From contig PEYT01000004.1 of the NCBI GenBank assembly GCA_002774285.1, positions 4,345-68,344 of the forward strand: a stretch of 64,000 nt of DNA. Direction: 5' to 3'. The notes beneath the pieces are model-generated. The model was not told the DNA's origin. It did no database searches and saw only the letters and a list, made by a program, of their open reading frames with translations. A program made the position numbers and the translations under genes. How positions within the stretch are numbered: the first letter of the stretch is position 1; every line of letters begins with the position of its first letter. The DNA is from a candidate division WWE3 bacterium CG08_land_8_20_14_0_20_40_13. GTDB lineage: Bacteria > Patescibacteriota > WWE3 > 0-14-0-20-40-13. This document shows positions 5,294 to 47,254 of the stretch, piece after piece.

Positions 5294-5887
5294 GTGATGA
5301 TTATGATCTTTTTAATCCCGTTAATTGTTGTTATTGGCGTTGCTTTGTACGCTGTTTCGGTTTACAATTTTTTGGCTTCGGCTAAAGTTAGAATAAAAGC
5401 GGCCATTCAGGAGATTGGAAATCAGCTAAAGCGTCAGGCAGAGCTTATTCCAAATCTTATCGAAGCGACCAAAGGGTATATGAAGCACGAAAAGGAAATC
5501 TTTGAAATGCTTTCTAAGGCCCGCCAAAAAGTAGACTCCGCTGTAAAATCGGGAAAGGTTTCTGATATGGTTTTGGCAAACGACTCTTTGGTCAAGATGA
5601 TTCCGCAACTTACAGCAACATTTGAAAGTAATCCAGAAATTAAAGCCAGCGAAGTAGTAAAAGATTTAATGAGTAATCTTACCGATACTTCGGACAAGGT
5701 CTCTTACTCACGCAGACTTTTGATAGACTTGACTGCGGATTACAATGCAAAGCTTGTTACTGTCCCATCCAGCTTTGTGGCTGGTTTGTTTGGATTTAAA
5801 GCCGAAGAAGGGCTTAAGATGTTAGACGCAGGTTTGTCGCTAGAGGTTTCGGTAAACGAGGTAAAGACACCCAAAGTTAGTTTGTGA
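5294..5887 (+). CDS. lemA: LemA family protein
   Basis: N-terminal TM helix plus LemA-like helical domain (…NFLASAKVRIKAAIQEIGNQLKRQAELIPNLIEATKGYMKHE…). Confidence 0.7.
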   Translation: MMIMIFLIPLIVVIGVALYAVSVYNFLASAKVRIKAAIQEIGNQLKRQAELIPNLIEATKGYMKHEKEIFEMLSKARQKVDSAVKSGKVSDMVLANDSLVKMIPQLTATFESNPEIKASEVVKDLMSNLTDTSDKVSYSRRLLIDLTADYNAKLVTVPSSFVAGLFGFKAEEGLKMLDAGLSLEVSVNEVKTPKVSL

Positions 5888-5943
5888 TTAATAATTCGGG
5901 AGGATCCCGTTTCGGGATCCTCCCGAATTGGGATCCTCCCGGT

Positions 5944-6855
5944 TTTATGGCCCAAATAATCAATTTTTACGAACGGCAAAGTGAAAATATTGCCAAAACA
6001 TTTGGCCTTTTAATAGGTTTTGTGGTTCTTTTTTCTCTTTTCGCTTATTTTATAGGTTACATCTATAACGGCTCCCAGTATTTTTTGCCATTCGCTTTTC
6101 TTTTTTCGCTTGGCACTTCATTTGTCAGTTTCTATTTTAGTGAATCCATTGTTCTTGCCGCCTCCAAAGCACATAAAGCAAGTAAAAAAGAATATTTTAA
6201 TTTTTATACCGTGGTCGAAAACATCTCTCTTGGAACTGGACTTCCGATGCCAAAGCTATATGTGATAGATGATTCTGCCCCAAACGCCTTTGCAACCGGA
6301 AGAGATAAACATCACGCCTCGATCGTCGCGACAACGGGGCTTTTGGAATCACTTAATCGCCCGGAATTAGAAGGGGTCATGGCGCACGAACTTTCTCATG
6401 TAGGAAATAACGATATGTTACTTATGACGGTTGTCGCGGTTCTTGTCGGTACCGTTGTTATGGTCATGGATTGGTTTTGGCGGGTGCGGATTAGAGTGGG
6501 GGATGACGACGATAAAAAATCAGGCGCAATTTTTCTTGTTATCGCTTTAGTTTTCGCAATTTTAACACCCCTAATTGCCCAGCTTATTAAATTTGCGATT
6601 TCCAGACAAAGGGAGTTTTTGGCGGATGCAACGGCCGTTAAATACACAAGAAATCCTACCGGTTTAGTAAATGCTCTAATAAAGGTCGCAAGTTCAAAGG
6701 AACCTTTGGAAGTTGCAAATAAGGCGACCGCTCATTTATATTTTGAAAATCCCTTAGATAATGTGCAAGGAAGCGAAGGCGTCGGCTTTCTGAAGAATCT
6801 CTTTTCAACCCACCCACCGGTTTCCGAGCGCATCAAAAGACTTCAAGAAATGTAA
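5944..6855 (+). CDS. htpX: HtpX-like M48 zinc metalloprotease
   Basis: HELSH zinc motif, TM helices and an overall HtpX pattern. The start is taken at MAQIINF (5944). The 20 codons upstream in the track ORF (from 5884) are encoded by a palindromic repeat and are probably not translated. Confidence 0.7.
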   Translation, partial: FMAQIINFYERQSENIAKTFGLLIGFVVLFSLFAYFIGYIYNGSQYFLPFAFLFSLGTSFVSFYFSESIVLAASKAHKASKKEYFNFYTVVENISLGTGLPMPKLYVIDDSAPNAFATGRDKHHASIVATTGLLESLNRPELEGVMAHELSHVGNNDMLLMTVVAVLVGTVVMVMDWFWRVRIRVGDDDDKKSGAIFLVIALVFAILTPLIAQLIKFAISRQREFLADATAVKYTRNPTGLVNALIKVASSKEPLEVANKATAHLYFENPLDNVQGSEGVGFLKNLFSTHPPVSERIKRLQEM

Positions 6856-6881: not shown

Positions 6882-6910
6882 TCTTCCACTTCGGAAGTGG
6901 AAGATTTTTT
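6882..6910 (+). terminator. rho-independent terminator downstream of htpX
   Basis: 10-bp stem TCTTCCACTT / AAGTGGAAGA around a CGG loop, followed by TTTTTTGG. Confidence 0.6.
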
Positions 6911-10388: not shown

Positions 10389-10447
10389 ATGAAACGGGAC
10401 ACTACCCCGAAAGGGGCAGTGCCCAGATGCTGTAAAATTCTCCGATC

Positions 10448-12655
10448 TTAAATTGATTGATGTTTCCTACCAAAACCCAATGAGCGCATTTTTAGTCTCA
10501 CAAGCCCAAAAATCACCATCAAAAGAGGTACGCCGACAAGGTTTCCGTATTTAACGGCGTTTTTCTCCGTTTCACTTTTAAATACCAAGGGCGATGGTAT
10601 ACTGGATTTTGCTCTTATGGCTACAAATCCTTTGTCGTTTGTGGCCAGATCAAAAAGATTTAAGGCAAAAGAAGAATTTGCCCCATAAAAATCTTTGGTA
10701 ATCATATCGTCGTTTGATATTACGATAACCTTCCCTCCGCTTTGATTTTCAGCTAGAACAGCGACACTTCTTTCTTTAAGATTGCTCTTGGAAAAATTTT
10801 TGTTGGGGGAAACATCAATTGTTGTTCCTTCGTCACTTCCAGCCGAGGACGAAGATTTTGCGATGACGGTTTGCTTTATTCCTTCCACATTCTTAAGTTC
10901 CAAATCGCTTCCCCAAGCAGTAAGAACAGGAGCGATATTTCCAAGTAAATTCTTTCCCTCTCCCGTCAAGGTAACTCTTGCAAAGTATGGGTAGGGAAGA
11001 ACATAAGTAAAGAATCCTTGGTTAAGGTTGATTCTCTCGTTGTTTTGCAAATCAAAAATAAGGTCTTTGTTCAACGAAATCCCGTATGGAGCTAGCGTGT
11101 CATCAATATTATTTTTATTTTCGGTAGGGGATAGGGTAGAAATCGATATATCATAAGAATCTCCAAAAACGATAAGCGCTTTTCCGGAGTCGACAAACTT
11201 TTTAATTTTCTCGTTTGTTCCGCTATCCAGCGGTTCCTTTGGGCCGGCAAGGACTAAAATGTCTGTATCAACCGGTATTATTTTTTCTTCCTTATCTTTT
11301 GGTTCTTTAACAAGTGACAGGGTGGTCGCTTGGTAGTATTTGGAAAGTTCGTCGCGGAATGTTGCCAAATCGGAATAAAGTCCAAGGCTTTTTGCGTCCT
11401 GTAAAAACGCCACTTTTTTGTTTGATCCACCAGATACTCTCTTAACTAAGGTAATCGTTTGATATTCTAATCCCTCTGTGGATTCCAAAAAGGCGATCGG
11501 TTCCTTATCCTCTCCGTTTTTGGCAACTATTCCCAAAAGTCCTTTTTTGGCTTGAAATTCATCATTTCTTACCGTGTTAAATTGCACTGGGGTTATCCCG
11601 TCGCTTAATGCGTTTTGCTCTTCTTCGGGAGAACTGGTTTCTTTATATTCTATTTTAAGCTTGTTTCCGGGAACCATGGAAAAATCCTTTAGTAGGTCCA
11701 TAAGGGCATCTTTTCTTTCGGCAAATTCTGGCGGAAGTTCTTTGGAATAATAAAAAACCAATAGGGTATTGCCATCCAATTTCCGCAAAATATCTTTGGT
11801 CGTTGGAGAAAGTGTATATACCTTATCGCGGGTTAGATCTAGGCGTATAAAAAGAGGTTTGACAAAGAAATTTAAAAGAACAACTCCAGCAAAAAGGGCC
11901 GCGACCGTTGTTTTAAGAGTGTAGGACAAAAACCTGCTACCTTTGGAAATTCGTCCTTGGGAAAGAATAAAAGCACTTAGGGCCAGAAAGAAAAGTGAGA
12001 AGCTTATAAAATATATTGCATCTCTTAAATCCAGAACCCCTTTATCAAATGAATTGATGCGGGAGAACGCGCCAAAAGAAGAAACGATGGAAGCGAAAAA
12101 CGGGGGAAGCCCCATGGTAACGGAATCCGATCCCAAAAGAACAAAAGAGATAATGGTCACGAGGGATATTACAAACGCCACGATCTGATTATCGGTAAGC
12201 GTGGAAATAAGAACACCGATAGAAACAAAAAGCATTCCAAGAAAAGCAAGTCCCAAATACGATGTTAAGACAACACCCCAATCAAATTTCCCGTATAGGG
12301 AAAGGGAAGTCGGAATAGTTAAAGTAATGGCGATCATCAAAAGATAAATAAAGAATGTGCCGACAAATTTTCCAATGATAAATTGTAACGGGGAAACAGG
12401 GGCAGTAATAACAGTTTCCAAGGTTTTGTTGCTTTTTTCTCCGGCCACTGTTGCCATAGTTAAAGCCGGGATGATTACGGCAAGAAGCATCGGGATATTT
12501 AAAGTGTATGGGCGAACAGAGGCGTAGCCAGAAAGAAATATCTGGCGGAAAAATAAAAAGTAAGAAACCCCAATAAAAGCGACAAAGAATATGTAACCTA
12601 CGGGCTGGTTAAAGAAGTTTAAGAACTCTCTTTTTGCTATAGTTAGGATTTTCAT
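10448..12655 (-). CDS. ABC-2 type permease fused to a large GldG-like extracytoplasmic domain
   Basis: N-terminal 6-TM ABC-2 permease-like region and a long soluble domain ending in a TM helix. The 4-nt ATGA overlap with the upstream ATPase gene suggests an operon. Confidence 0.5.
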   Translation of the reverse strand: MKILTIAKREFLNFFNQPVGYIFFVAFIGVSYFLFFRQIFLSGYASVRPYTLNIPMLLAVIIPALTMATVAGEKSNKTLETVITAPVSPLQFIIGKFVGTFFIYLLMIAITLTIPTSLSLYGKFDWGVVLTSYLGLAFLGMLFVSIGVLISTLTDNQIVAFVISLVTIISFVLLGSDSVTMGLPPFFASIVSSFGAFSRINSFDKGVLDLRDAIYFISFSLFFLALSAFILSQGRISKGSRFLSYTLKTTVAALFAGVVLLNFFVKPLFIRLDLTRDKVYTLSPTTKDILRKLDGNTLLVFYYSKELPPEFAERKDALMDLLKDFSMVPGNKLKIEYKETSSPEEEQNALSDGITPVQFNTVRNDEFQAKKGLLGIVAKNGEDKEPIAFLESTEGLEYQTITLVKRVSGGSNKKVAFLQDAKSLGLYSDLATFRDELSKYYQATTLSLVKEPKDKEEKIIPVDTDILVLAGPKEPLDSGTNEKIKKFVDSGKALIVFGDSYDISISTLSPTENKNNIDDTLAPYGISLNKDLIFDLQNNERINLNQGFFTYVLPYPYFARVTLTGEGKNLLGNIAPVLTAWGSDLELKNVEGIKQTVIAKSSSSAGSDEGTTIDVSPNKNFSKSNLKERSVAVLAENQSGGKVIVISNDDMITKDFYGANSSFALNLFDLATNDKGFVAIRAKSSIPSPLVFKSETEKNAVKYGNLVGVPLLMVIFGLVRLKMRSLGFGRKHQSI

Positions 12656-16751: not shown

Positions 16752-18146
16752 ATAACAGTACCATCATTTCTGTAGATTTCTTGGTACCCATATTTTTCTG
16801 GGTCGTCTTTCATTTCTAGATCAATAAATGTTCCAATGCTGACGAATATATAATTGGTTTGAAGAACCTCCAATTTTGTATTCCAGCTATCTTGCGCTTG
16901 CAAAATCTCAAGCCATGCCTGGTATGAGTTTTTTCCCTTCTCGGACTGCCATGCTGGCATCCTTCCGTCAATAAAAACTTTGGAATTTGGTATCTTCCAG
17001 TCTAAGAAACCCCCCCCATTCATACATATTAAAAATGTTCCCGCGGAAATCCTTTGCAAATTCAGTTGCTTTGCAAGGCAGTCTTACATACCCAGTTTCA
17101 CAATATACCCCCCAATTTGTAGAAAAATTGACTACTTTGTAGATATTTCCTGGAGTCGAAAGAACAATAAGAAAAACAATAATGGAGCAGGTCGTGATTT
17201 TAATTTGGGGATGTTCCAAGATACGGTTTAATTTTGGAAGATCCATTGGGAAGAGCGCAATGATGGACAGATAGAAAATTGGAAGGTTGCGTCGGGCTTT
17301 TAGTGCCAAAATTGCAAAAAAGATAATTGTTAGAATTTCGAAAGCACTGGTTTTGTGACTCTTTAAATACTTTACAGTGTAAAACAGCGATATCACTACT
17401 GCGAAAATAATAACAAATAAAGAATGGGGAAAAATTGTCGGTACCCATTCCGCTATAGAATTTTCCAATCCTCTGGTAGCGTGTCTTAGCACTTCTACCC
17501 ATACCCGCCAAAAGAATGGATTTACTAAAGTGGCAATAATTGTGCTTAAAAAAAGGGAGAACGAGAACAAGCTTTTTCTTGACCCTTCCAAAAAGAGTTT
17601 AGAGAGAAAAAAGAATAAAACAAGAACAGGCCCCAAGAAGAATCCTGCATGACTATTAGTTCAGATAATCATGAGGGGAATTATTATAATTTGTTTGGGT
17701 TCCCTGACTCTCTTTAGTATGAAGATGAATAAAGCCACAAAAAACATTGTTAAAAATTGGGAGCGGAATCCTAAAGATAGGACGGACCATGAGAAAAAAA
17801 TAGCCAAATAGCAAAGAGAAATTCTGGCAATAAAAGGTCCCCGGTTGGTAAAAAATGCTAAAAGAATTGTGCTAGCAGAAATAAAGGCTCCGACAATACT
17901 TAAGCCAAGAAAACCGTTTAAGGAAAAAATTATGGCTACAAGAGCATCATAGAGAAACGACGAGTAGGCCCATTTAAAATCTGGCAAAAAATAAGAATAA
18001 TGGTTTTTTATACATAAATTTCCGTTAAATAGATCTTGTCCGCATCTTAAATGCCAGCCAAAATCGTTGTCAGCGTGGGGGAGAAAGAAAATTAGAAGGA
18101 GAGAAAGAACAAATATTGCAAAAGAGGCGATCTTAATTTTACTCAT
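16697..18146 (-). pseudogene. GT-C-type polytopic membrane glycosyltransferase (ArnT/PMT-like), interrupted by an in-frame TGA and a frameshift at a poly-G(8) tract
   Basis: Three consecutive track ORFs (17661..18326, 16968..17636, 16697..17059) encode one multi-TM protein. Pieces 1 and 2 share a frame and are split only by the TGA at 17661-17663. Pieces 2 and 3 switch frame inside the G8 run (plus-strand C8 at 17010-17017). The real start is probably MSKIKIASF at 18146, because the upstream part of the track ORF is the RNase P RNA. Confidence 0.5.
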
Positions 18147-18165
18147 TACCCAATTGTATAGGATT

Positions 18166-18499
18166 TCGCAGGAAGCGAGTAAGCCAGATTCTGTTTTAGA
18201 CCTCAATCTATCTACGCTCCATCTTTCTGCCCATGTTGCTAAAAGCCAGCTTTTGAGGGCATATTCGTGGATTGCTACTGGTGGGATTGCCCGTTTCATA
18301 CCTTCGACATGCTTTCGCGAAGTCAAAGGGTCGTCTCTGTTGCTCTCAAGTCCTGTTAATTCAGAACTTGTTTTCCGCGCCTTTCGGTACGGGAACGCCA
18401 GCGGTTTTAACCGTCGGGGCTTGCGCCCCGTCCCATGCTTTTTTGTGTAGTCTGGACTTTCCTCCCGCCGTAGGCGGGTAGAGGCCCTGCTTCCTGCGG
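18166..18499 (-). ncRNA. rnpB: RNase P RNA (bacterial type)
   Basis: Minus-strand P4 5' strand GGGAGGAAAGUCCAGAC (plus 18454-18465) and P4 3' strand ACAGAAUCUGGCUUA (plus 18180-18194). P1 pairs 5' GCAGGAAGC with 3' GCUUCCUGC. P3 hairpin CCCGCCUACGGCGGG, a GGGGCGCAAGCCCC GNRA hairpin and the CAACAGAGA motif. The region is GC-rich and has no plausible CDS. Confidence 0.65.
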
Positions 18500-18503
18500 A
18501 GTT

Positions 18504-18514
18504 ATTTTAGCACA
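18504..18514 (-). promoter_or_regulatory. extended -10 promoter (TGcTAAAAT) for rnpB
   Basis: On the minus strand TGTGCTAAAAT sits about 7 nt upstream of the predicted RNase P RNA 5' end. Confidence 0.4.
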
Positions 18515-18555
18515 GTTTTGTTGTTGGTACGAGGATCAGACCCCAAACCTGATTT

Positions 18556-18933
18556 CTAGGAAACGAGTTTCTTAAAAAGGACCTCCACAGTTTTTGCGCA
18601 GACAACGCGGCGGCCAAAACATTTATGAGGAACAAGGGCACCGCTAAAGGTTTTCGGAATATGCAATAGCTCGTGAATTAATGTTTTATCTTGATCTTCT
18701 TTTTTAAGTTTAAAAAATTTCTCCGAAATTATTTCTATTACATAGCGAGGCGCTAGGTCAAAAGCGACTTGATGAATACGGGGGAAAGAATAAATGCGCG
18801 CAATTGCCCGCGTTTTTGTGCCGTGGCTGACAATCAACTTAACGAAATCTTTGTCAACATGGGGAAATGGGATTTTCCCAATTATTTCATCTAACCGGGA
18901 TTTAATTTGGGGATTTGCAAAATATTCAACCAC
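18556..18933 (-). CDS. small HExxH-motif putative zinc metallopeptidase (SprT/DUF45-like)
   Basis: 125 aa with LIHELLHIP. The family assignment is tentative. Confidence 0.4.
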   Translation of the reverse strand: MVEYFANPQIKSRLDEIIGKIPFPHVDKDFVKLIVSHGTKTRAIARIYSFPRIHQVAFDLAPRYVIEIISEKFFKLKKEDQDKTLIHELLHIPKTFSGALVPHKCFGRRVVCAKTVEVLFKKLVS

Positions 18934-18995
18934 GAAAGTATTCTAACAGAAACGCCCCCAGTTATCACACAAACTTATTGTGACAACAAGGGGCG

Positions 18996-19355
18996 TCAAT
19001 TTTGACTGGTGTTTCTGAACCTTCTGAACCCAAGTTCAATTCTTTCGTTTCGGATATACCTCGCTATGGCAAGTTTCATATCTTGCATTGTCCCGTGTTT
19101 TGGATAAACCCTTATGTCCTGTACGGCACCTTTCTGTGTTACCACAAGAAGAGCGCAACAGGATTCGCTTACGATTTTGACGCGCAAGTTCCCAAGTCCT
19201 TGGCATGTGTGGCCAGTTATTGCGCCGAGAACTATTTTCTCAACAAGGATATTCTCACTGAGAAAAACAACGAGTTCGGTGGCATGGTCGATGACAGTTG
19301 TGTGAGTTCCAGTGATCTTTCCCCCCGCGGCGTGATTTTTCATTACCCCCTCCAT
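18996..19355 (-). CDS. small hypothetical protein (119 aa), paralog of the 6963..7226 ORF
   Basis: MEGVMKNHAAGGKITGTHTTVIDH... It shares the AAGG N-terminus, an internal block and a 13-nt CCCCCCGCGGCGT with the other copy. A same-size ORF on the opposite strand (19002..19361) makes the strand call uncertain. Confidence 0.3.
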   Translation of the reverse strand: MEGVMKNHAAGGKITGTHTTVIDHATELVVFLSENILVEKIVLGAITGHTCQGLGNLRVKIVSESCCALLVVTQKGAVQDIRVYPKHGTMQDMKLAIARYIRNERIELGFRRFRNTSQN

Positions 19356-19417
19356 AATTAAAGAACAAAAGTGTTGCTATAGTAGCAAAAAGCCCACTTA
19401 ATTTCAACGATAGGATT

Positions 19418-21136
19418 TTAGTATTTTTGGGATTGGAGGTTCCAATATCTGGCGTATACGCTTTCGGGGTTTTGAGTGAGTATTTTGTGATTGCCTTCTT
19501 CTATTACAGTTCCTTTTTCTATCACAACAATTTTATCAGCACGCATTACGGTAGAGAGGCGGTGAGCGATAATAATTGTGGTTTTATTTTGCGCCGCTTT
19601 CCAAAATGCCTCCTGGATTTTGGCTTCGGTTTCGGAATCCAATTGGCTTGTCGCTTCATCAAAAATAATGATTTTAGGGTTTGCAAGCATTACCCGAGCA
19701 ATCGCCAACCGTTGTTTTTGCCCGCCAGAAAGTTTTACGCCTCGTTCTCCAACTTCTGTATCATATTTTTTTGGTAGCCCCTGAATAAATTTATCAAGGT
19801 TTGCCATTTTCGCCGCGGCCTCAATTTGATTCTGCTTGGCGTCATCAACTCCATACCCGATGTTAAACCCAATAGTGTTGTTAAAAAGAATTGGATCTTG
19901 GGGAACAACGCCGATTAAAGACCGTAAATACGATTTTTCCATATCTTTTAAATCAACCCCGTCAATTGTAATCCTCCCACCGCTGGTATCGTAAAATCTC
20001 ATCAAAAGTTTTGCGACCGTAGTTTTTCCCGCTCCCGATTCTCCAACCAACGCCACCGATTGTCCCGCACGGATTTTAAGACCGAAGTTTTTTAGGGCGC
20101 CTTTTTTTCCATCGGGGTAAGAAAAGGTTACATCTATAAATTCAATTTCTCCCTCAACTTCCTTTAGTCTTACCGGATTTGTGGGATCTTTTACCAAAGT
20201 TTCGTTTTCCAAAATGCCAAAATATTTTTTTAGGTCCGCCTGATTTTTTATGATGCTTCGCATTCGCCGGACAAAATCAAAAAACCGGCTATAAAACGCG
20301 CTTGTAAAACCAATTACTAGTATGAAATCTCCCGTTGAATAAATTCCAGCCAAGGTCTTTTTAACAGTTACAAAAAGCAAAATAAAAAAGGAAATATTGC
20401 CAAGTGTTCCAAGCGCAATCTCCAGAGCTCTAAATGAATTGGAATACGCCCAAAGTTTGGAAAGCCAAACAACAAAAGAATCTTTTAGTCTTTTTTCCTT
20501 GGCGAAAAGTTTTACCGTTTCGTAGTTTAAAAGATTATCGGTGATAAGTGCCGACAGTTTGTCTTCCTCATCGTTAAATTCTTGCCTTGTCTTTAGGTTT
20601 CTAAAAATAAGAGACTTAGCCACAAAGATATTGGCAAAAAAGGTAAATAAAGAAACAACAACAAACCACGGACTTATTTGGTTAAAAGCAAAAGCCATCA
20701 CGACAAGACTTACTAAAATCCGGATAATGCCAAAGTGAATATTTTCAAAAGTATCAAAAAAAGCGCTGTCGCCTCTTTTAATATTGCTTATTAAAGATCC
20801 TGTGCTTTTGGACAAATGAAAAGCCATATCAAGATCTTGTATTTTCTTAACCACTGATATCCTAGCATCGCGGGAAGAGGGAAGAAGCACGGTATCTCCG
20901 CTCCAGTGGGCAAGAGAAGTAGATATATTATGCGAAATTCTTACTACAAAATACCAAGCGAGAACTACAAATACAGTGCCTGAATTGGGGTTTGTTACCG
21001 CATCAACAAAGAGTTTATAAAAATAGGGTTGGACGCTTTCGGTAACGGACATCACAACAAGAAAAACAAGGAAAAGCCCGTAGCGGAGTTTGTACTTTAG
21101 CAAAAATCCATAGAATTTTTTATATTCATTAAACAT
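19418..21136 (-). CDS. ABC exporter, fused permease and ATPase (MsbA/lipid A export-like)
   Basis: 6-TM N-terminus, then Walker A GESGAGKTT, signature LSGGQKQRLAIARV and Walker B IIIFDEATS. Confidence 0.8.
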   Translation of the reverse strand: MFNEYKKFYGFLLKYKLRYGLFLVFLVVMSVTESVQPYFYKLFVDAVTNPNSGTVFVVLAWYFVVRISHNISTSLAHWSGDTVLLPSSRDARISVVKKIQDLDMAFHLSKSTGSLISNIKRGDSAFFDTFENIHFGIIRILVSLVVMAFAFNQISPWFVVVSLFTFFANIFVAKSLIFRNLKTRQEFNDEEDKLSALITDNLLNYETVKLFAKEKRLKDSFVVWLSKLWAYSNSFRALEIALGTLGNISFFILLFVTVKKTLAGIYSTGDFILVIGFTSAFYSRFFDFVRRMRSIIKNQADLKKYFGILENETLVKDPTNPVRLKEVEGEIEFIDVTFSYPDGKKGALKNFGLKIRAGQSVALVGESGAGKTTVAKLLMRFYDTSGGRITIDGVDLKDMEKSYLRSLIGVVPQDPILFNNTIGFNIGYGVDDAKQNQIEAAAKMANLDKFIQGLPKKYDTEVGERGVKLSGGQKQRLAIARVMLANPKIIIFDEATSQLDSETEAKIQEAFWKAAQNKTTIIIAHRLSTVMRADKIVVIEKGTVIEEGNHKILTQNPESVYARYWNLQSQKY

Positions 21137-30598: not shown

Positions 30599-31762
30599 GT
30601 GGAAACATCAGATAAGAAAAAAGTGGTGGTGGGGATATCGGGCGGAGTAGATTCTGCGGTTTCGGCGTACCTTTTAAAAAAACAAGGTTATGAAGTTCTT
30701 GGTGTATATATGTGGTGTTACGGAAGTCATGACGAACATTGTCGGGCTCATCAAGACCGCGCCGATGCCATAAAAGTTGCCACGCATTTAGGAATTCCTT
30801 TTGAGATTTGGGATTTTGAAAAAGAATATTCCGAGAAAGTTTTAAAGTATTTTTATGATGAATATAATGCTGGATGTACTCCAAATCCCGATGTGGTTTG
30901 TAATAAAGAGATAAAGTTTGGAATGTTTTATAAAAGAGCGATTAAGAAGCGAGGTTTTGATTTTGTGGCAACAGGGCATTATGCTCGAGTGGTTGGGGGC
31001 ACATCGCAAATTAGGGCAGTGTCCGAATTCGGGCACTGCCCTAAATATCTGGCTTCTGGAAAAGATAAAACTAAGGATCAATCCTACTTTTTATATCGCA
31101 TTCGCTTGGAACAACTCTCCCACATCCTTTTTCCCGTCGGTGATTTAACAAAAAAAGAAGTCCGTCAAATTGCAAAAGAAGCAGGACTTCCCGTTTTTGA
31201 TAAACCCGATAGTCAAGGGGTTTGTTTTGTTGGGGAAGTATCAATGCGCGATTTCCTTAAAGGGAAAGTGGATTATAAAGAAGGGAATGTTGTTGATACA
31301 AAGGGGGAAGTGATCGGTCACCATACTGGTCTGCCGTTTTACACAATCGGTCAGCGCCGTGGGTTCACTTTGACGAAATATAAAGGATTGCCCATGTATG
31401 CGATTGGAAAAAATGCGGTGAATAACACCCTCATCGTTGGATGTGGGAAAGAGACTGAGGCGGAAAGTTTTAGAGTTGGAGATATTAATTGGCTCGTTTC
31501 TAATACGGGATCCTCCCGAAACGGGAGGATCCCGTATCAAAACTTAAGGGTTCGGATCAGACATCTTGGTAAATTAATCCCGTGTGATATATTATTTGAA
31601 AATTTGAAAAATAAAAATTCATTAAAAATTTCAAATTTGGAGGCCGTGCCCCCATCGCAGGTACGATGTAAATTAAAAATTCCCCAGCGGGGGGTAGCTC
31701 CTGGACAGTCAGCTGTTTTCTACCTTGATGACATTGTTATTGGCGGAGGCGTAATATTGTAG
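30599..31762 (+). CDS. mnmA: tRNA-specific 2-thiouridylase MnmA, with two in-frame palindromic insertions
   Basis: PP-loop SGGVDS, the KDQSYFLY motif and the C-terminal PGQSAVFY. The extra segments IRAVSEFGHCP and NTGSSRNGRIPYQ are encoded by perfect palindromes at 31011-31044 and 31503-31537. Confidence 0.8.
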   Translation: METSDKKKVVVGISGGVDSAVSAYLLKKQGYEVLGVYMWCYGSHDEHCRAHQDRADAIKVATHLGIPFEIWDFEKEYSEKVLKYFYDEYNAGCTPNPDVVCNKEIKFGMFYKRAIKKRGFDFVATGHYARVVGGTSQIRAVSEFGHCPKYLASGKDKTKDQSYFLYRIRLEQLSHILFPVGDLTKKEVRQIAKEAGLPVFDKPDSQGVCFVGEVSMRDFLKGKVDYKEGNVVDTKGEVIGHHTGLPFYTIGQRRGFTLTKYKGLPMYAIGKNAVNNTLIVGCGKETEAESFRVGDINWLVSNTGSSRNGRIPYQNLRVRIRHLGKLIPCDILFENLKNKNSLKISNLEAVPPSQVRCKLKIPQRGVAPGQSAVFYLDDIVIGGGVIL

Positions 31763-32861: not shown

Positions 32862-32947
32862 TGGTGGGCGAGAGAGGATTTGAACCTCCACGGATTTTAC
32901 TCCACTGGCTTCTGAAACCAGCCTGGCTACCATTACAGCACTCGCCC
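32862..32947 (-). tRNA. tRNA-Leu (anticodon CAG), CCA encoded
   Basis: I folded it by hand: a 7-bp acceptor stem GGGCGAG/CUCGCCC, an anticodon stem CUGGU/GCCAG around the loop UUCAGAA (anticodon CAG), a long variable arm, a T-loop GGUUCAAAUCC and a 3' ACCA. Confidence 0.85.
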
Positions 32948-32969
32948 GTATCATTCATATTCTACCTTA

Positions 32970-32999
32970 TTGACAAACCCTTAGTAAATTATGTATGTT
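32970..32999 (+). promoter_or_regulatory. candidate rRNA promoter (TTGACA-N18-TATGTT)
   Basis: A consensus -35 element sits about 200 nt upstream of the 16S start. The spacer is 18 nt, so the call is tentative. Confidence 0.3.
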
Positions 33000-33170
33000 A
33001 CCGAGGTGACAGTAAAAGACTCCTGCAATGCAGGTGTGGTTTTTTTGTCTAATTTGATCTTTAAAAATTCAATATCAAAAATTTAGCTTACCGGCAGTTC
33101 AATTGTTTTGAAAAGGTGCGGGTTATAGCTATAAGTTAAAGTGAAGTTCAAAAATTAAGTGGTGGAAAGA

Positions 33171-34630
<1,460 letters not shown>

Positions 34631-34883
34631 CAAAGGAGATTTTCTTCGATGATTTTTATCATCGCGGAAGCTCATAAATGTTTTCTAAGTCGGAAAACTT
34701 TGGAGCATAAACATTTTCTTTTGCCCCTCACGGCAAAAGATCAGACAGCTTGGTTGGGTGAGGTTTAACCTAACAATGAATCTTTCCACCGCTTAGAATT
34801 TGAATCGCGTCAGACGCGACTTTGCTTTAACTTAACTCCTCAGCACTGTAAATTCCGCGCATTTTTTGTGCTATCATTTGAAT

Positions 34884-35708
34884 ATGGCAAACACCTCTGT
34901 CCTTTGCGCCCAAAACGGCTCTATAAAAATAGCTGCTCTTGACCATCGCGATTCCTTAAAAAAAATTCTTCCCGAGGATGAAATAAATAAGTTCAAAAGT
35001 CTGTGTGTCGAGGCATTTAGTCCTTTTGTGACCGCAGTTTTACTTGATCCTGAATATTTAGAAAAAACAGGGATTGGGGCAATGCCCCTAAAGGGGCACT
35101 GCCCCATTATTTCCGTCCCGTTTCTTGCCTCTTTGGAAAAATCAGGATACATAGACACTTCCGATGGCAGGATTACCGAAACTTATGGTGACTATTTTAA
35201 TGCAAGAACAGCTAAAAGAGTCGGAGTTATCGCCACAAAGCTTTTAATTTATTTTAATAATGACGCACCATCAAAGAATCACCAAATAGAGATTGCGAAA
35301 AGATGTTTTGATGAATCTCGTCAAGTGGGACTTCCCTTACTTTTAGAAATCGTTACTTATCCATATCAAAATAAGGTTTATAGCGAGAGTTTAGAAATCT
35401 CCCGTGCCGTCTCTCAACTTGCGGATTTCGGAGATGTTTTAAAGCTTAATTTTTGTGACAATCTTGATATTTTATCGGATCTAAAGCATTTGGAAAAACC
35501 TTGGGTTCTTTTGAGTCGGGGAATGCTCTTTCCGGAATACAAAAGATTGTTAATAAAAGCTAAAGAAATTGGTGGCGCGAGCGGCTTTGCCGTTGGACGG
35601 GCCTTATGGCAGGAAGTTGGCAATCTTAAAACTTGGGCAAAGAAAGAATTTTTTATCAAAACTACTGCAGTTTCGCGTCTAAAGGAATTAGCAGAAATTT
35701 TTAATTAG
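34884..35708 (+). CDS. class I aldolase of the LacD/tagatose-bisphosphate aldolase family, with an in-frame palindromic insertion
   Basis: The LLDPEY, LLLEIVTYP and GRALW blocks parallel LacD. The start is taken at MANTSV. The extra segment GAMPLKGHCPI is encoded by the palindrome at 35075-35106. Confidence 0.6.
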   Translation: MANTSVLCAQNGSIKIAALDHRDSLKKILPEDEINKFKSLCVEAFSPFVTAVLLDPEYLEKTGIGAMPLKGHCPIISVPFLASLEKSGYIDTSDGRITETYGDYFNARTAKRVGVIATKLLIYFNNDAPSKNHQIEIAKRCFDESRQVGLPLLLEIVTYPYQNKVYSESLEISRAVSQLADFGDVLKLNFCDNLDILSDLKHLEKPWVLLSRGMLFPEYKRLLIKAKEIGGASGFAVGRALWQEVGNLKTWAKKEFFIKTTAVSRLKELAEIFN

Positions 35709-38569: not shown

Positions 38570-41500
38570 ATGCGCCTTTCGTTTTCCGAAGAAGGTTTTA
38601 AGTTTCCGTTGCCCAACCTTTCAGCCATTCAGCTGGACTCGTTTAACGCTTTTCTACGGGAAGGTGTTAATGATGTTCTAGAAGAAATTAACGATATAGA
38701 AGACTATACCGGGCGAGGCTGGGTTTTAAGTTTCTCCAATCCCAGATTTGATAAAGCTACAATATCTATTCAAGAATCCATAGAACGGGGAATGACATAC
38801 AGCGCTCCTTGGTACATCAAAGTTACTCTACTTGAGAAAGAATCCAAAAAATCGAAAACTCAGGATGTCTATATGGGCGAAGTTCCATTAATGACCCCCA
38901 AGGGAACATTTATTGTAAATGGAATTGAAAAGGTTATTGTTAACCAACTTATACGCTCCGAGGGCGTGTATTTTTTGCCCATAGAATATCCGGGAAATCC
39001 TAATCTTTTCGCAAGCGCTAAGTTGCTTCCAAAAAACGGCGCGTGGCTCGAAATAGAAACTTCAAAAACAGGAGTTCTTACCGTAAAAATTGACCGAAAA
39101 AGAAAAGTTGTGTTAACCGCGCTTTTAAGAATTTTTGGTTTAGAAAACGATAACGACATAAGGGAGGCCTTTAAAGAAGCCGAAAAGGGATCCGAAGTGT
39201 CTTATGTAGAAGCAACTTTAGAAAAAGATCCTTCGTCAAATTACAACGAGGCTTTAATAGAAATATACCGCAAAGTGCGTCCCGGGGAGCCTTTGATTTT
39301 GGATAATGCTAAAACTCTTATAGAAACCATGTTTTTTAATCCGCGTCGCTATTCACTTGGAAAGGTCGGCCGTTTTAAATTTAATCAGAAGCTAAAAACG
39401 GAGTTTCCTCAAGACAGTATGGGGCGTCTTTTACACAAAGAAGATCTAATAAAGGTCATAGAAAGAATAATCCTTTTAAACCGTAATATTGGTGAGGAGT
39501 ACGATGACATTGATCATTTAGGAAACCGAAGAGTGCGATCTGTGGGGGAGCTTTTGCAAAATCAAATTAGAATCGGGTTTTTGCAAATGGAAAGAAATAT
39601 TAAGGAAAGAATGTCATTGCAACCCCGTGGACAGCTCTGCGAGCCAAATACTCTTATTTCCACAAGACCTGTTGCCGCGAAGGTGCACTCTTTTTTTGCA
39701 TCTGGACAACTTAGTCAATATCAGGATCAATCAAACCCATTAACGGGTCTCGATCATTTAAGAAGGCTTTCCGTTATGGGACCCGGAGGGCTAACTAAAG
39801 AAAGAGCCAGCTTCTCTGTTCGCGATGCGCACTATACTCATTATGGAAAAATCTGTCCTGTTCGGACCCCGGAAGGTCCCAATATTGGACTTATTACATA
39901 TGTAGCGCTCTACGCTCGTGTAAATGAATATGGATTTTTGGAAACGCCTTACAGGAAACTTGATAAAGATGCTAAGGGAAATTATGTAGTTACCGATACA
40001 ATCGATTATCTTGCGGCCTATGACGAGGAGAAGTTTTTTATTACGGACGCTTCGGTAAAGGTTTCTAAAGACGGCGTTGTTTTGGATAAGCGAGTTCCGC
40101 TCCGTAAAGGGAAAGACTTCTTTATCGGAGATGTTTCGCAGGCAAGTTACATGGATATTAACTCCCAGCAAACTGTAGGCCTTGCCGCCTCCTTAATTCC
40201 GTTTATTTCTAATACCGATGTTATCCGTGCCCTCTATGGATGCCAGCAAGCCACTCAAGCGGTTCCTCTAATTATTCCCCAGAAGCCGTTTGTAGGTACT
40301 GGGATGGAGGAAATCGCGGCGTTAGGTTCTGGGGCTATTGTAATGGCGGAGGAGGACGGAGTTGTTTCGTTTTCCGATGCCACAAAGGTTATTGTAAAAG
40401 GGAAAAATACTACCGAATATAAAATCCTTAAATTTGTTCAGTCCAACATGGATACCTGTTACAACCAAAGTGTTGTGGTAAGCGCTGGGCAAAAAGTAAA
40501 AAAGGGCCAAGTTCTTGCCGAAGGACCAGCAGTATTGGACGGAGAATTGGCGATTGGAGCCAATCTTAAAGTAGCCTTTATGATATGGGGAGGGTACAAC
40601 TACGAAGACGCTATTGTGGTTTCCGAGCGCTTGGTGCGGGATGATGTTTTAACTTCTATTCATATTAAAGATCGTGCGGTGCAAGTTTTAGAAACAAAGC
40701 TTGGACCCGAAGAAATTACCCGCGATATTCCCAATGTTTCAGAAGAAGCCTTGCGCAACCTAGATGAGCGGGGCATTGTTGCAATAGGATCAGAGGTAAA
40801 ATCAGGCGACATTTTGGTTGGAAAAATTGCTCCAAAAGGGGAAACAGAGCTTTCGGCGGAGGAAAGATTACTTCGTGCTATCTTTGGAGAAAAGTCCCGC
40901 GATGTTAAAGATAACTCGTTGGTTTTGCCACATGGGGAGTATGGAACAGTAATTGGAATCACAGAGCTTACAAAAGAAAAAGGTGACGAACTTCCAATAG
41001 GTGTTGTAAAAGAAATCCGCATTTTTGTGGCGCAGCGGAGAAAAATTGTTGTTGGGGATAAACTAACTGGGCGTCAGGGGCAAAAAGGAGTAATCGCTCT
41101 TATTGCCAAAGACGAGGATATGCCTTTTATGACCGATGGGACAAGAGTAGATATTATTTTGCACCCCGCCTCCCTTCTTGGCCGTATGAATATTGGTCAG
41201 CTTCCGGAAACTCATCTTGGTTGGGTAGCCGAAAGAACAAATAAATATTTTCAAGTTCCCGTCTTTACAAAATTTGGCGAAGAGCAGCTTAAAGCGGCGT
41301 TAAAAGAAGCAGGTCTTCCCGAGGATGGGCGAACCGCTTTGTTTGACGGAAAATCTGGGGAGCCTTTTGCAAATCGTGTGGTTGTAGGAAATCTTTATAT
41401 TCTTAAACTGCATCATCTTGCTGAGGATAAAATGCACGCTAGAAGTACCGGACCATATTCTTTAATTACGCAACAGCCTCTTGGTGGAAAGGCTCAATTT

Positions 41501-46571: not shown

Positions 46572-46698
46572 ACAGTTTCTTATCCAAAGTAATAGTTTGA
46601 CCAAGTCCTTTCTACCTTCAAATTTACCAATTAACAAACCTAATAAGTACCCCCCCCTCAATGTTCTGTGCTACTTGACAACCGCGTCTTGTTGCAAT

Positions 46699-46722
46699 AT
46701 CCTGTACATATATGTACAGGAT
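46699..46722 (+). promoter_or_regulatory. perfect 24-bp palindrome ATCCTGTACATATATGTACAGGAT overlapping the abiEi start codon; putative AbiEi autoregulatory operator
   Basis: The two 12-nt halves are exact reverse complements. The ATG of the 46712 ORF lies inside it. Confidence 0.4.
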
Positions 46723-47254
46723 AGACACTCTTATTAAGTTGGATAGGAAGCTGTATCATACAAACGATCTGGCTATATGTTGGAAAATAATTAACAAAAA
46801 TACCTTATACACGGCAATTAAGCGGTATATAAAGAGGGGAATTTTGATTCCGGTTAAAAAAGGTTTATACTCCACCATTCCTTTAGTGCAACTTGATCGG
46901 CAAAACCTTGGAATTGCTCTTATCCATAAGTATTGCTACTTAAGCACGGAATCTGTATTTGTTAAAAACGGGATCATCACCCAAAACAACTTTTACACAA
47001 CTTTTATTAGTAGTGTTTCTGCCAAAATAGCAGTTTCCGATTGGCAATTTCTTTATCGAAAATTGAAAGACGAGTTTCTTTATAACCAAGAGGGTATTTA
47101 TAGCGAGAACGGCGTTTATATGGCGACGACGGAAAGAGCCGTTGCCGATATGTTGTATTTTAATCCAACATACCATTTTGACCTTTTAGAAAATATCGAT
47201 TTTAACAAAGTAAAAGATATCCAAAAAAAGGTTGGTTATCCATGCAGTATTTAA
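46712..47254 (+). CDS. abiEi: AbiEi-family antitoxin (type IV TA, wHTH)
   Basis: N-terminal ...LYTAIKRYIKRGILIPVKKGLYST... matches the AbiEi_4 pattern (..L.RLV..G.L.RV.RGVY). 13-nt overlap with the downstream nucleotidyltransferase-toxin gene. Confidence 0.55.
   Translation: MYRIDTLIKLDRKLYHTNDLAICWKIINKNTLYTAIKRYIKRGILIPVKKGLYSTIPLVQLDRQNLGIALIHKYCYLSTESVFVKNGIITQNNFYTTFISSVSAKIAVSDWQFLYRKLKDEFLYNQEGIYSENGVYMATTERAVADMLYFNPTYHFDLLENIDFNKVKDIQKKVGYPCSI

Follow-up and report, generated by a model that had tools for sequence, protein, structure and literature searches.

Palindromic insertions in mnmA

The DNA analyzed in this study, hereafter the window, is a 64,000-nucleotide stretch of the genome of candidate division WWE3 bacterium CG08_land_8_20_14_0_20_40_13 (contig PEYT01000004.1, positions 4,345 to 68,344), and our subject is a perfect palindrome that lies inside one of its conserved genes, together with the repeats related to it. 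The host open reading frame (ORF), at 30599-31762 on the plus strand, was assigned as mnmA, encoding the tRNA 2-thiouridine synthase, based on its best PDB matches, which were MnmA structures (E ~1e-73), and on the presence of all three of the three Pfam MnmA domains; the invariant MnmA residues, C101 and C209 among them, are kept in the window protein. This gene carries three hairpin-forming in-frame inserts. The one of principal interest, at 31503-31537, reads ATACGGGATCCTCCCG-AAA-CGGGAGGATCCCGTAT, a 16+3+16 palindrome without a mismatch whose predicted RNA fold has an energy of -31 kcal/mol, and the sequence thus confirms the original prediction of a perfect 35-nt palindrome in frame within mnmA. 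It is made up of two inverted 13-nt units, CGGGATCCTCCCG at 31506-31518 and CGGGAGGATCCCG at 31522-31534, with an AAA spacer between them and ATA and TAT on the flanks, and we refer to elements built from such units as family A. The core contains zero stop codons across six frames. Read in frame it gives TGSSRNGRIPY (in the context N-T-G-S-S-R-N-G-R-I-P-Y-Q), and past it the ORF stays open into the C-terminal barrel, a conserved part of the enzyme (VRIRHLG...GQSAVFY...GGG); the loop segments predicted from the inserts of the window MnmA include NTGSSRNGRIPYQ and SQIRAVSEFGHCPK.

The other two inserts are of different types. At 31011-31044 there is a palindrome of a second family, family B, consisting of TTAGGGCAGTGTCCGAA followed by TTCGGGCACTGCCCTAA with one mismatch and read in frame as IRAVSEFGHCPK, and at 31600-31638 there is an AT-rich hairpin (AAATTTGAAA...TTTCAAATTT), which occupies a third variable loop of MnmA and, among close relatives, is found in the window organism only. 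The representative of the MnmA protein cluster, P0001, which is from this same organism, has NTRSSRNGRIPY in place of the window's NTGSSRNGRIPY; because this change affects one arm and the peptide of the other arm is not compensated, the hairpin must be imperfect in some strains.

An AlphaFold2 model of the protein, built on 66 sequences, was confident overall, with a predicted local distance difference test score (pLDDT) of 88.4 and a predicted template modeling score of 0.88, and in it all three insert segments were modeled as coil with pLDDT values of 49-65. The family-B insert falls in a coil loop at residues ~134-150 (pLDDT 62-65), the family-A insert (residues ~302-313, pLDDT ~56) in a coil loop at 299-315 that has the C-terminal barrel strands 288-298 and 316-319 on either side, and the AT-rich insert in coil at residues ~335-352, with pLDDT <50 at 339-347. 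A surface-loop location had been predicted for the palindrome, and a low-confidence coil loop in an otherwise confident model agrees with it. Among 120 MnmA homologues from the candidate phyla radiation (CPR) the first two of these loops are hypervariable, with modal lengths of 18 and 10 residues and inserts that reach 68 and 45 residues, respectively. Relative to the modal length of 10, the family-A loop of the window is longer by ~7 residues; the figure depends on the reference that is chosen, and the addition of about 12 residues that was initially proposed is not established.

The palindrome array at the lemA-htpX junction

A second family-A element lies between lemA (5294-5887, plus strand) and htpX (5947-6855, plus strand), which encodes an M48 peptidase and forms a conserved gene pair with its upstream partner. 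The array, at 5893-5945, comprises three units with a 16-nt period and has a predicted fold of -40 kcal/mol: the units match the 13-mer CGGGAGGATCCCG or its complement and lie at 5897-5909, 5913-5925 and 5929-5941, with the centre triplets GGA, TCC and TCC, and 5893-5929 is a perfect 17+3+17 palindrome. The mnmA arm had been noted to recur at this junction, and it does so in the three units spanning 5897-5941, but what had been described as an extra half-copy is a complete unit (5929-5941) with one mismatch (TGGG...), after which the sequence reads GTTTTAT.

The element has misled gene calling. The mechanical htpX ORF starts at GTG 5884, crosses the stop-free element and acquires an N-terminal extension of 21 residues, which is an artefact of gene calling caused by the stop-free element adjoining the lemA stop codon. 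HtpX orthologues (72-84% identity) are 301-303 aa long and align from ATG 5947, the true start, so that the earlier suspicion that the MINNSGGSRFGILPNWDPPGF extension is spurious was correct; the 323-aa HtpX call found in public protein sets (P0121) is this organism's own only. Two antisense ORFs on the minus strand, at 31241-31540 (99 aa) and 5740-5979 (79 aa), likewise begin in or cross the stop-free elements (MIRDPPVSGGSRIR... and ...GRIPIREDPETGSSR..., respectively), and these are almost certainly spurious, even though they are callable as genes. Elements of this kind thus seed both false N-terminal extensions and false antisense ORFs, and in addition they inflate the apparent loop variability of conserved proteins and can break alignments.

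In relatives, the lemA-htpX spacer is 1, 3, 27 or 75 nt long and has no GC-rich hairpin, being just 1-3 nt in L070 and L072 (related loci are given L numbers throughout). These short spacers indicate that the pair is normally tightly coupled, and that the 59-nt spacer of the window is essentially the inserted array. They also bear on the explanation that the elements act at the RNA level, as terminators, mRNA stabilizers or processing sites, in which the junction copy would punctuate the lemA transcript and the intragenic copies would be regulatory. The high stability of the hairpins (-31 to -40 kcal/mol) would suit such roles, as would the position of several non-coding copies exactly between same-strand genes (7 tandem junctions) and the T-runs that follow many non-coding copies, including the GTTTTAT after unit 5929-5941. 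However, relatives do without a hairpin at this junction, which can be only 1-3 nt long in them, so that a terminator is not needed at that place. A terminator scan called none on the plus strand at the element; the only canonical one, a hairpin followed by TTTTTT at 6882-6904 on the plus strand, comes after htpX and likely ends the lemA-htpX transcript. A search of Rfam returned no family for the element, only sub-threshold matches to generic hairpins. Furthermore, 55% of the arrays described below lie inside housekeeping genes, and the terminator role is weakened because more than half of the family copies are intragenic, where termination would be harmful. We therefore find the idea that the element serves as the lemA terminator unsupported, and consider an RNA-level function for the family as a whole quite unlikely, while the junction copy may still have some effect on the transcript in which it lies.

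Members of interspersed palindrome families

The building unit of family A is the 13-nt self-complementary sequence CGGGA-nnn-TCCCG, which can form a 5-bp stem with a 3-nt loop. As each 13-mer is itself a small palindrome, the orientation of a unit is set by its centre triplet alone (GGA or TCC). In the window there are five family-A matches at ≤2 mismatches versus 0.78 expected, and none of 100 shuffled sequences reached five. An energy scan of the window identified only five 50-nt segments folding below -25 kcal/mol, with none in the shuffled control; these five most stable segments correspond to the 16S rRNA, both family-A sites and the family-B sites at 31011 and 35066. The elements in mnmA and at htpX are also present, without any change, in two independent JGI metagenome contigs, L027 and L047, whose identity to the window is 99.8%, and are therefore not assembly artefacts. 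The homologues of MnmA and HtpX are from Patescibacteria/CPR (WWE3, Parcubacteria, Woesebacteria and Shapirobacteria).

Metagenome contigs were scanned with a generalized dimer, CGGGAnnnTCCCG-nnn-CGGGAnnnTCCCG, which has 20 fixed bases. It was found in 58 contigs, compared with one or two chance matches by a rough estimate, and the majority of the matches were in low-GC sequence (0.34-0.49) similar to the window. Within the low-GC loci, which were chosen for bearing the dimer, there were 135 units in 455 kb, versus 0.12 expected by composition. The arrays consist of 2-5 units with a 16-nt period and a 3-nt A/T-rich spacer, the commonest variant being CGGGATACTCCCG-AWT-CGGGAGTATCCCG, and each genome has its own dialect of centre triplets that is common to its copies, GGA/TCC in the case of the window genome. 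A third family-A site, a three-unit array in frame in a FemAB-family ORF, was found in L025/L058, which also have a family-B dimer; these loci do not overlap the window and very probably come from elsewhere in its genome. This third site and the dozens of related copies at other loci establish the repeat family, and the motif is not restricted to the two places at which it was first noticed.

Matches elsewhere were few. In a species-level genome collection from which the source genome is absent, the exact family-A dimer, in any orientation, was found only in an unrelated four-copy array of Roizmanbacteria (L001). That array (L001 4003-4066, from a metagenome-assembled genome) and a similar one at L052 ~2791-2854 consist of at least four direct tandem copies of GGGATCATCCCGAAAC with a 16-nt period, an all-direct arrangement of the same unit type that is situated between convergent genes. 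A scan of viral contigs gave three matches, all with other centre triplets and at a GC content of 0.49-0.62, and so no sign of phage carriage. The high-GC metagenome matches (L010, L015, L026, L029, L030, L040, L041, L062 and L063) were set aside as probably unrelated.

Family B is represented by dimers of the GGGGCAnTGCCCC type with a 3-6-nt A/T-rich spacer, at three sites in the window. Besides the mnmA copy, whose site is empty in the L002 and L003 orthologues, there is a 30-nt dimer at 35076-35105 (GGGGCAATGCCCC-TAAA-GGGGCACTGCCCC), in frame in a deoC-like gene (ORF 34866-35708), and an intergenic dimer at 10396-10424 (GGGACACTACCCC-GAAA-GGGGCAGTGCCC) between two same-strand genes. In the deoC-like ORF of the window, the 30-nt dimer accounts exactly for 10 additional codons; in L005, the closest relative, the copy has decayed (GGGGCAGTGCC...GGGGCATTATTCC), and the 9-10 codons are missing from L003 and L007. 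At the intergenic site, the L003 orthologues of the flanking genes overlap by 11 nt. A third family, GGGGTCAGACCCC/GGGGTCTGACCCC, also forms dimers, with a TAAA-like spacer, and lies beside type-A arrays on the same contigs (L028 7716-7760 and 8323-8365; L009, L017, L022, L033, L049, L050, L055, L064 and L073), with GGGGTCAGACCCC dimers present in more than 10 loci.

Genic context, reading phase and pairing of the units

Among 42 distinct arrays of at least two units, 23 lie at least 10 codons inside a long ORF; the remainder are at same-strand junctions (7), between convergent (2) or divergent (3) genes, or in unclear contexts (7). Ten of the host ORFs were checked against Pfam and all proved to be real genes, with domains that flank or span the element: MnmA, YchF, a MiaB-like radical-SAM protein, the CCA-adding enzyme, a PMT/GT39-like glycosyltransferase, CysS, a FemAB-family protein, ProS, a GH18 protein and a PMT_2 protein. 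Since 16 is not a multiple of three, successive units of an array are read in successive phases, and the phase of the first unit, read by hand from the peptides, takes all three values at a ratio of ~4:8:5 (giving peptides such as RD.PESG.SR, GILPNREYP and SG.SR.G.IP). The use of all three phases argues that no particular peptide is under selection. Of 44 distinct dimers, 34 are stop-free in six frames, compared with 2% of random 29-mers of window composition.

The arrangement of the units confirms the hairpins. Adjacent units are inverted in 35 pairs, direct in 7 and otherwise arranged in 5, and the inverted pairs give hairpins of 13-19 bp. The centre triplets, which were not fixed by the search, can pair in 33-38 of the 44 sequences, with changes on both sides in 5-14 of them; the four complementary types are GTA/TAC, TAA/TTA, GGA/TCC and CAG/CTG, and the covariation score of the triplets was greater than in all 500 shuffles and in all slid controls. 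A common outward flank, yCCAAwT immediately before CGGGA, extends the stem and looks like a degenerate half-unit.

Turnover of the occupants of fixed sites

Comparison of relatives at the mnmA codon site that follows NWLV revealed different occupants. The window has the GGA-dialect dimer and L002 has CGGGTTCGTCCC-GATTA-GGGACGAACCCG; L003 has the arms of L002 with TCCGCCAGCTGGCGGA nested in the loop, L011 has three direct GTA units starting in the same codon phase, L007 has an imperfect hairpin of ~130 nt, and L005 has no hairpin. The divergence between L011 and the window is considerable, their 16S regions being ~78% and their MnmA proteins 54% identical. The arm at this site in L002 and L003, GGGTTCGTCCC, is a separate dialect that is also present as three units in L070, and a reading of the difference between the window and L002 as two compensatory double substitutions, indicative of selection on structure, was dropped for this reason.

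In L007 the mnmA orthologue has imperfect hairpin inserts of ~120-135 nt at loop sites 1 and 2 (10436-10590 and 11009-11143), which fold at -55 and -41 kcal/mol and both contain ATCCAGCATCCA; site 2 of another homologue, P0096, has a similar peptide (WKLEA...SSIQH). These inserts look like coding palindromes of the size known from Rickettsia, in the same phylum as the window organism.

A second well-populated site is in the GT39-like glycosyltransferase gene, where L021, L028 and L014 each have three type-A units at the same codon, in proteins that are 62-69% identical and genes whose third codon positions are 41-50% identical. L073, which is syntenic with L028 at ~76% nucleotide identity, has at this codon a GGGGTCAGACC/GGTCTGACCCC hairpin with TCCGCCAGCTGGCGGA in its loop; L075 has a degenerate copy, L074 a decayed and shorter one, and distant orthologues are ~8 codons shorter. 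The 16-nt palindrome TCCGCCAGCTGGCGGA, which has a CAGCTG core, was located at L003 10874-10889, L073 6527-6542 and L028 11043-11058: it stands alone in L028 and is nested in two different outer hairpins of two different genes in L003 and L073. A change of the site occupant among relatives fits hot-spot insertion, insertion into existing hairpins, or conversion, and it argues against selection on one fixed sequence.

These comparisons allow an origin in place to be weighed, in which replication template switching (quasi-palindrome correction) would both create hairpins in variable loops and perfect them, and sequence would not be copied from one locus to another. The perfection of the arms is what such a process would produce, palindromes do seem to grow from the centre (the L003 loop has 12 nt more than that of L002), and template switching has been proposed for the coding palindromes of Nematomorpha mitochondria (PMC6649704). 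It would not, however, account for identical 13-mers that recur across many genomes and, within one genome, at loci that are not linked, for TCCGCCAGCTGGCGGA nested in two unrelated outer hairpins of different genes, or for the consistent outward flank yCCAAwT common to the arrays. We consider this origin highly improbable given the identity across multiple loci, yet template switching could help to keep the arms perfect.

The same data are relevant to the explanation that the 13-mers are functional DNA sites, bound by a dimeric protein and serving, for example, as a DNA-uptake signal (competence being presumed for these bacteria) or as a nucleoid or segregation site, which would be kept by selection or by a drive of uptake plus recombination, with lineage dialects. 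The unit has the dyad symmetry typical of sites bound by dimeric proteins, at orthologous sites the host gene has changed far more than the element, the genome-specific dialect is common to all copies, and the intragenic copies occupy all phases at tolerant positions. Known uptake sequences, such as the DNA uptake sequence (DUS) of Neisseria and the uptake signal sequence of Pasteurellaceae, have dialects and are retained by drive; a sequence of this type is one motif found genome-wide at about one per kb, and it originates mainly through substitution. The elements resemble the Neisseria DUS in being a short motif with lineage dialects, in their inverted pairs at gene ends and intragenic copies, and in a retention beyond the neutral expectation; they differ in that their density is ~10x lower (5 family-A units in 64 kb), in that two or more unrelated families occur in one genome, and in that their copies originate through the insertion of additional codons rather than through point mutation. 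It also counts against functional sites that syntenic relatives have different families at one site and that copies have decayed in some lineages (the deoC-like gene of L005, and L074). We know of no uptake specificity in Patescibacteria. On balance, a role as protein-binding sites seems unlikely.

Origin of the palindromes

The explanation that we favor, with a probability of roughly 0.7, is that the mnmA palindrome belongs to a family of mini-palindrome repeats that is interspersed in a Patescibacteria (CPR) genome and is similar to repetitive extragenic palindromic (REP) sequences and REP doublets forming hairpins (REPINs). Several such families coexist within one genome. Their copies would enter by insertion and would persist at operon junctions, or in genes only if they are in frame, stop-free and situated in a tolerant surface loop, where they would be translated as coil rich in G, S, P and R, the peptide probably being a by-product and not the object of selection. 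The mnmA copy would then lengthen a loop of the C-terminal barrel, and the lemA-htpX copy, which misleads ORF callers, would have inserted where the intercistronic spacer is usually very short. We infer duplicative mobility, with new copies directed to hairpins already present, to hot spots, or to both. The most natural candidate for the mobilizing enzyme would be a Y1/HUH transposase acting on single-stranded hairpins, like the REP-associated tyrosine transposases (RAYTs), and gene conversion may alternatively homogenize the copies. Hairpin or hot-spot targeting, conversion, or repeated independent insertion may be responsible for the different families at one codon site and for the nested palindromes.

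Several observations weigh against this explanation. The elements of L021 and L028 match at 42/45 nt in host genes whose third codon positions are 50% identical, and retention at the same site despite near-saturated synonymous sites exceeds what would be expected of passive junk; it calls for hot-spot reinsertion, conversion or function. A phmmer search of the ORFs of the window and ~0.5 Mb of loci found no transposase or mobilizing gene, albeit in a weak test with an IS200 TnpA sequence as the query. There was no evident sign of recent mobility, either as a target-site duplication or as a strain-level polymorphism for presence or absence. The stop-free fraction of the dimers (77%) is only a modest excess over the 43% of random palindromes of the same composition, which indicates that this property results mostly from GC-rich palindromy. 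Finally, the copy counts rest on the window and the metagenome contig loci and are not genome-wide, and the metagenome set was ascertained with CGGGA/TCCCG fixed; as ten positions per unit were fixed in the search, their conservation cannot be read from that set, and the apparent conservation of CGGGA/TCCCG across metagenomes is partly an effect of ascertainment.

A more far-reaching version of the repeat-family explanation, that an active system homes several families to the same permissive codons and existing hairpin loops, so that a site would change its occupant again and again between related genomes and loops of essential proteins (MnmA, CysS and glycosyltransferases) would be continuously rewritten by hairpin-targeted insertion or conversion, we put forward as a tentative possibility. 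If such targeting were confirmed, it could be studied as a source of innovation in protein loops in reduced genomes, and the enzyme might be found by its co-occurrence with the repeats.

A segment of ~1.95 kb is enclosed by two type-A arrays, the right flanks of which are identical, in L022 (674-2681) and in L033 (76-2087). The segment encodes, judging from ORF translations, a nucleotidyltransferase/HEPN-like toxin-antitoxin pair and includes an ORF-free stretch of ~850 nt with no Rfam match; it was considered as an autonomous element and rejected, as no transposase is present.

Comparison with known palindromic repeats

In-frame coding palindromes have long been treated as a peculiarity of Rickettsia. 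The Rickettsia palindromic elements (RPEs) of Ogata et al. (2000, 2002), as two later accounts sum them up (PMC10969869, PMC3733652), are repeated palindromes that sit in frame within unrelated housekeeping genes, where they are read as extra peptide and surface loops accommodate them. The length of the RPE-1 type is ~100-150 bp, and the short RPE-4/6 carry a CGTC tag (PMC3733652), and they are described as losing repeat identity with time (PMC6649704). The elements in this study are like RPEs in being stop-free in-frame palindromes compatible with the protein fold, in having about half of their copies in ORFs and in forming several families per genome. They differ in their much smaller size (13-nt units, 29-45-nt elements), in the absence of the CGTC tag and in their host phylum, and also in that related genomes have different families at the same codon site and that the host gene has diverged much more than some of the copies within it. 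The likening to RPEs in the original prediction is consequently apt as an analogy, for in-frame insertion and loop tolerance, but does not extend to membership, given 29-45 nt versus 100-150 bp; the separation was made by length and tag.

REP sequences, bacterial interspersed mosaic elements and REPINs are GTAG/CGTC-tagged, RAYT-associated and predominantly extragenic (Di Nocera et al. 2013, PMC3733652), with occasional intragenic REP dimers that encode 20-30 residues (PMC3733652). The family-A elements share with them short GC-rich stem-loops (stems of 5-13 bp in REPs), an arrangement mostly as head-to-head dimers, clusters, species-specific variants and several families per genome. In contrast to REPs, which have the tag at one end of the stem-loop and lie mainly downstream of ORFs, a GTAG/CGTC tag was found within 8 nt of the ends in 0/45 distinct arrays, and the 13-nt unit, the regular 16-nt period and the intragenic majority (23/42) also set the elements apart. 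Miniature inverted-repeat transposable elements, which have terminal inverted repeats, a target-site duplication and a length of 50-500 bp, are different again: here the whole element is a hairpin of 29-45 nt, and the flanks show extended palindromy, not direct duplications.

The coding palindromes of Nematomorpha mitochondria are gene-specific inverted repeats of up to 284 bp for which template switching is favored (PMC6649704). Similarities to these include perfect coding inverted repeats with both arms translated, gain and loss, positions in common between species and a suggested upkeep of arm identity. The Nematomorpha palindromes are, however, organellar and gene-specific and have no interspersed family or common unit. 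The searchable literature, the coverage of which is incomplete, yielded no description of coding palindromes of this kind in CPR/Patescibacteria. The elements are best placed with the interspersed palindromes of the REP/RPE kind, as a variant of very small size with an unusually high intragenic fraction and site-specific turnover, and their host belongs to the CPR, a huge and poorly understood group with minimal genomes.

Additional features of the window

A perfect 26-nt AT-rich palindrome with no relation to family A or B, at 46698-46723 (TATCCTGTACATA followed by TATGTACAGGATA), overlaps the beginning of ORF 46712-47254 and may be an operator. The 16S rRNA gene is at 33172-34630 (~1459 nt) and is adjoined on the opposite strand by tRNA-Leu(CAG), within the region 32862-34866. 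No 23S rRNA gene follows the 16S gene, the deoC-like ORF at 34866 being there instead, and the rRNA genes therefore appear to be unlinked. An RNase P RNA was called on the minus strand at 18168-18497 through the archaeal Rfam model RF00373, with 86.9 bits against a gathering score of 84, lower-scoring overlapping matches of the same clan having been left out. Lastly, L005 has at 17102-20273, between yceG and rpoB, a cassette of two N6_N4 methyltransferases, a BsaWI-family restriction enzyme and an HNH protein; in the window, rpoB (at 38570) comes immediately after a yceG-like ORF.

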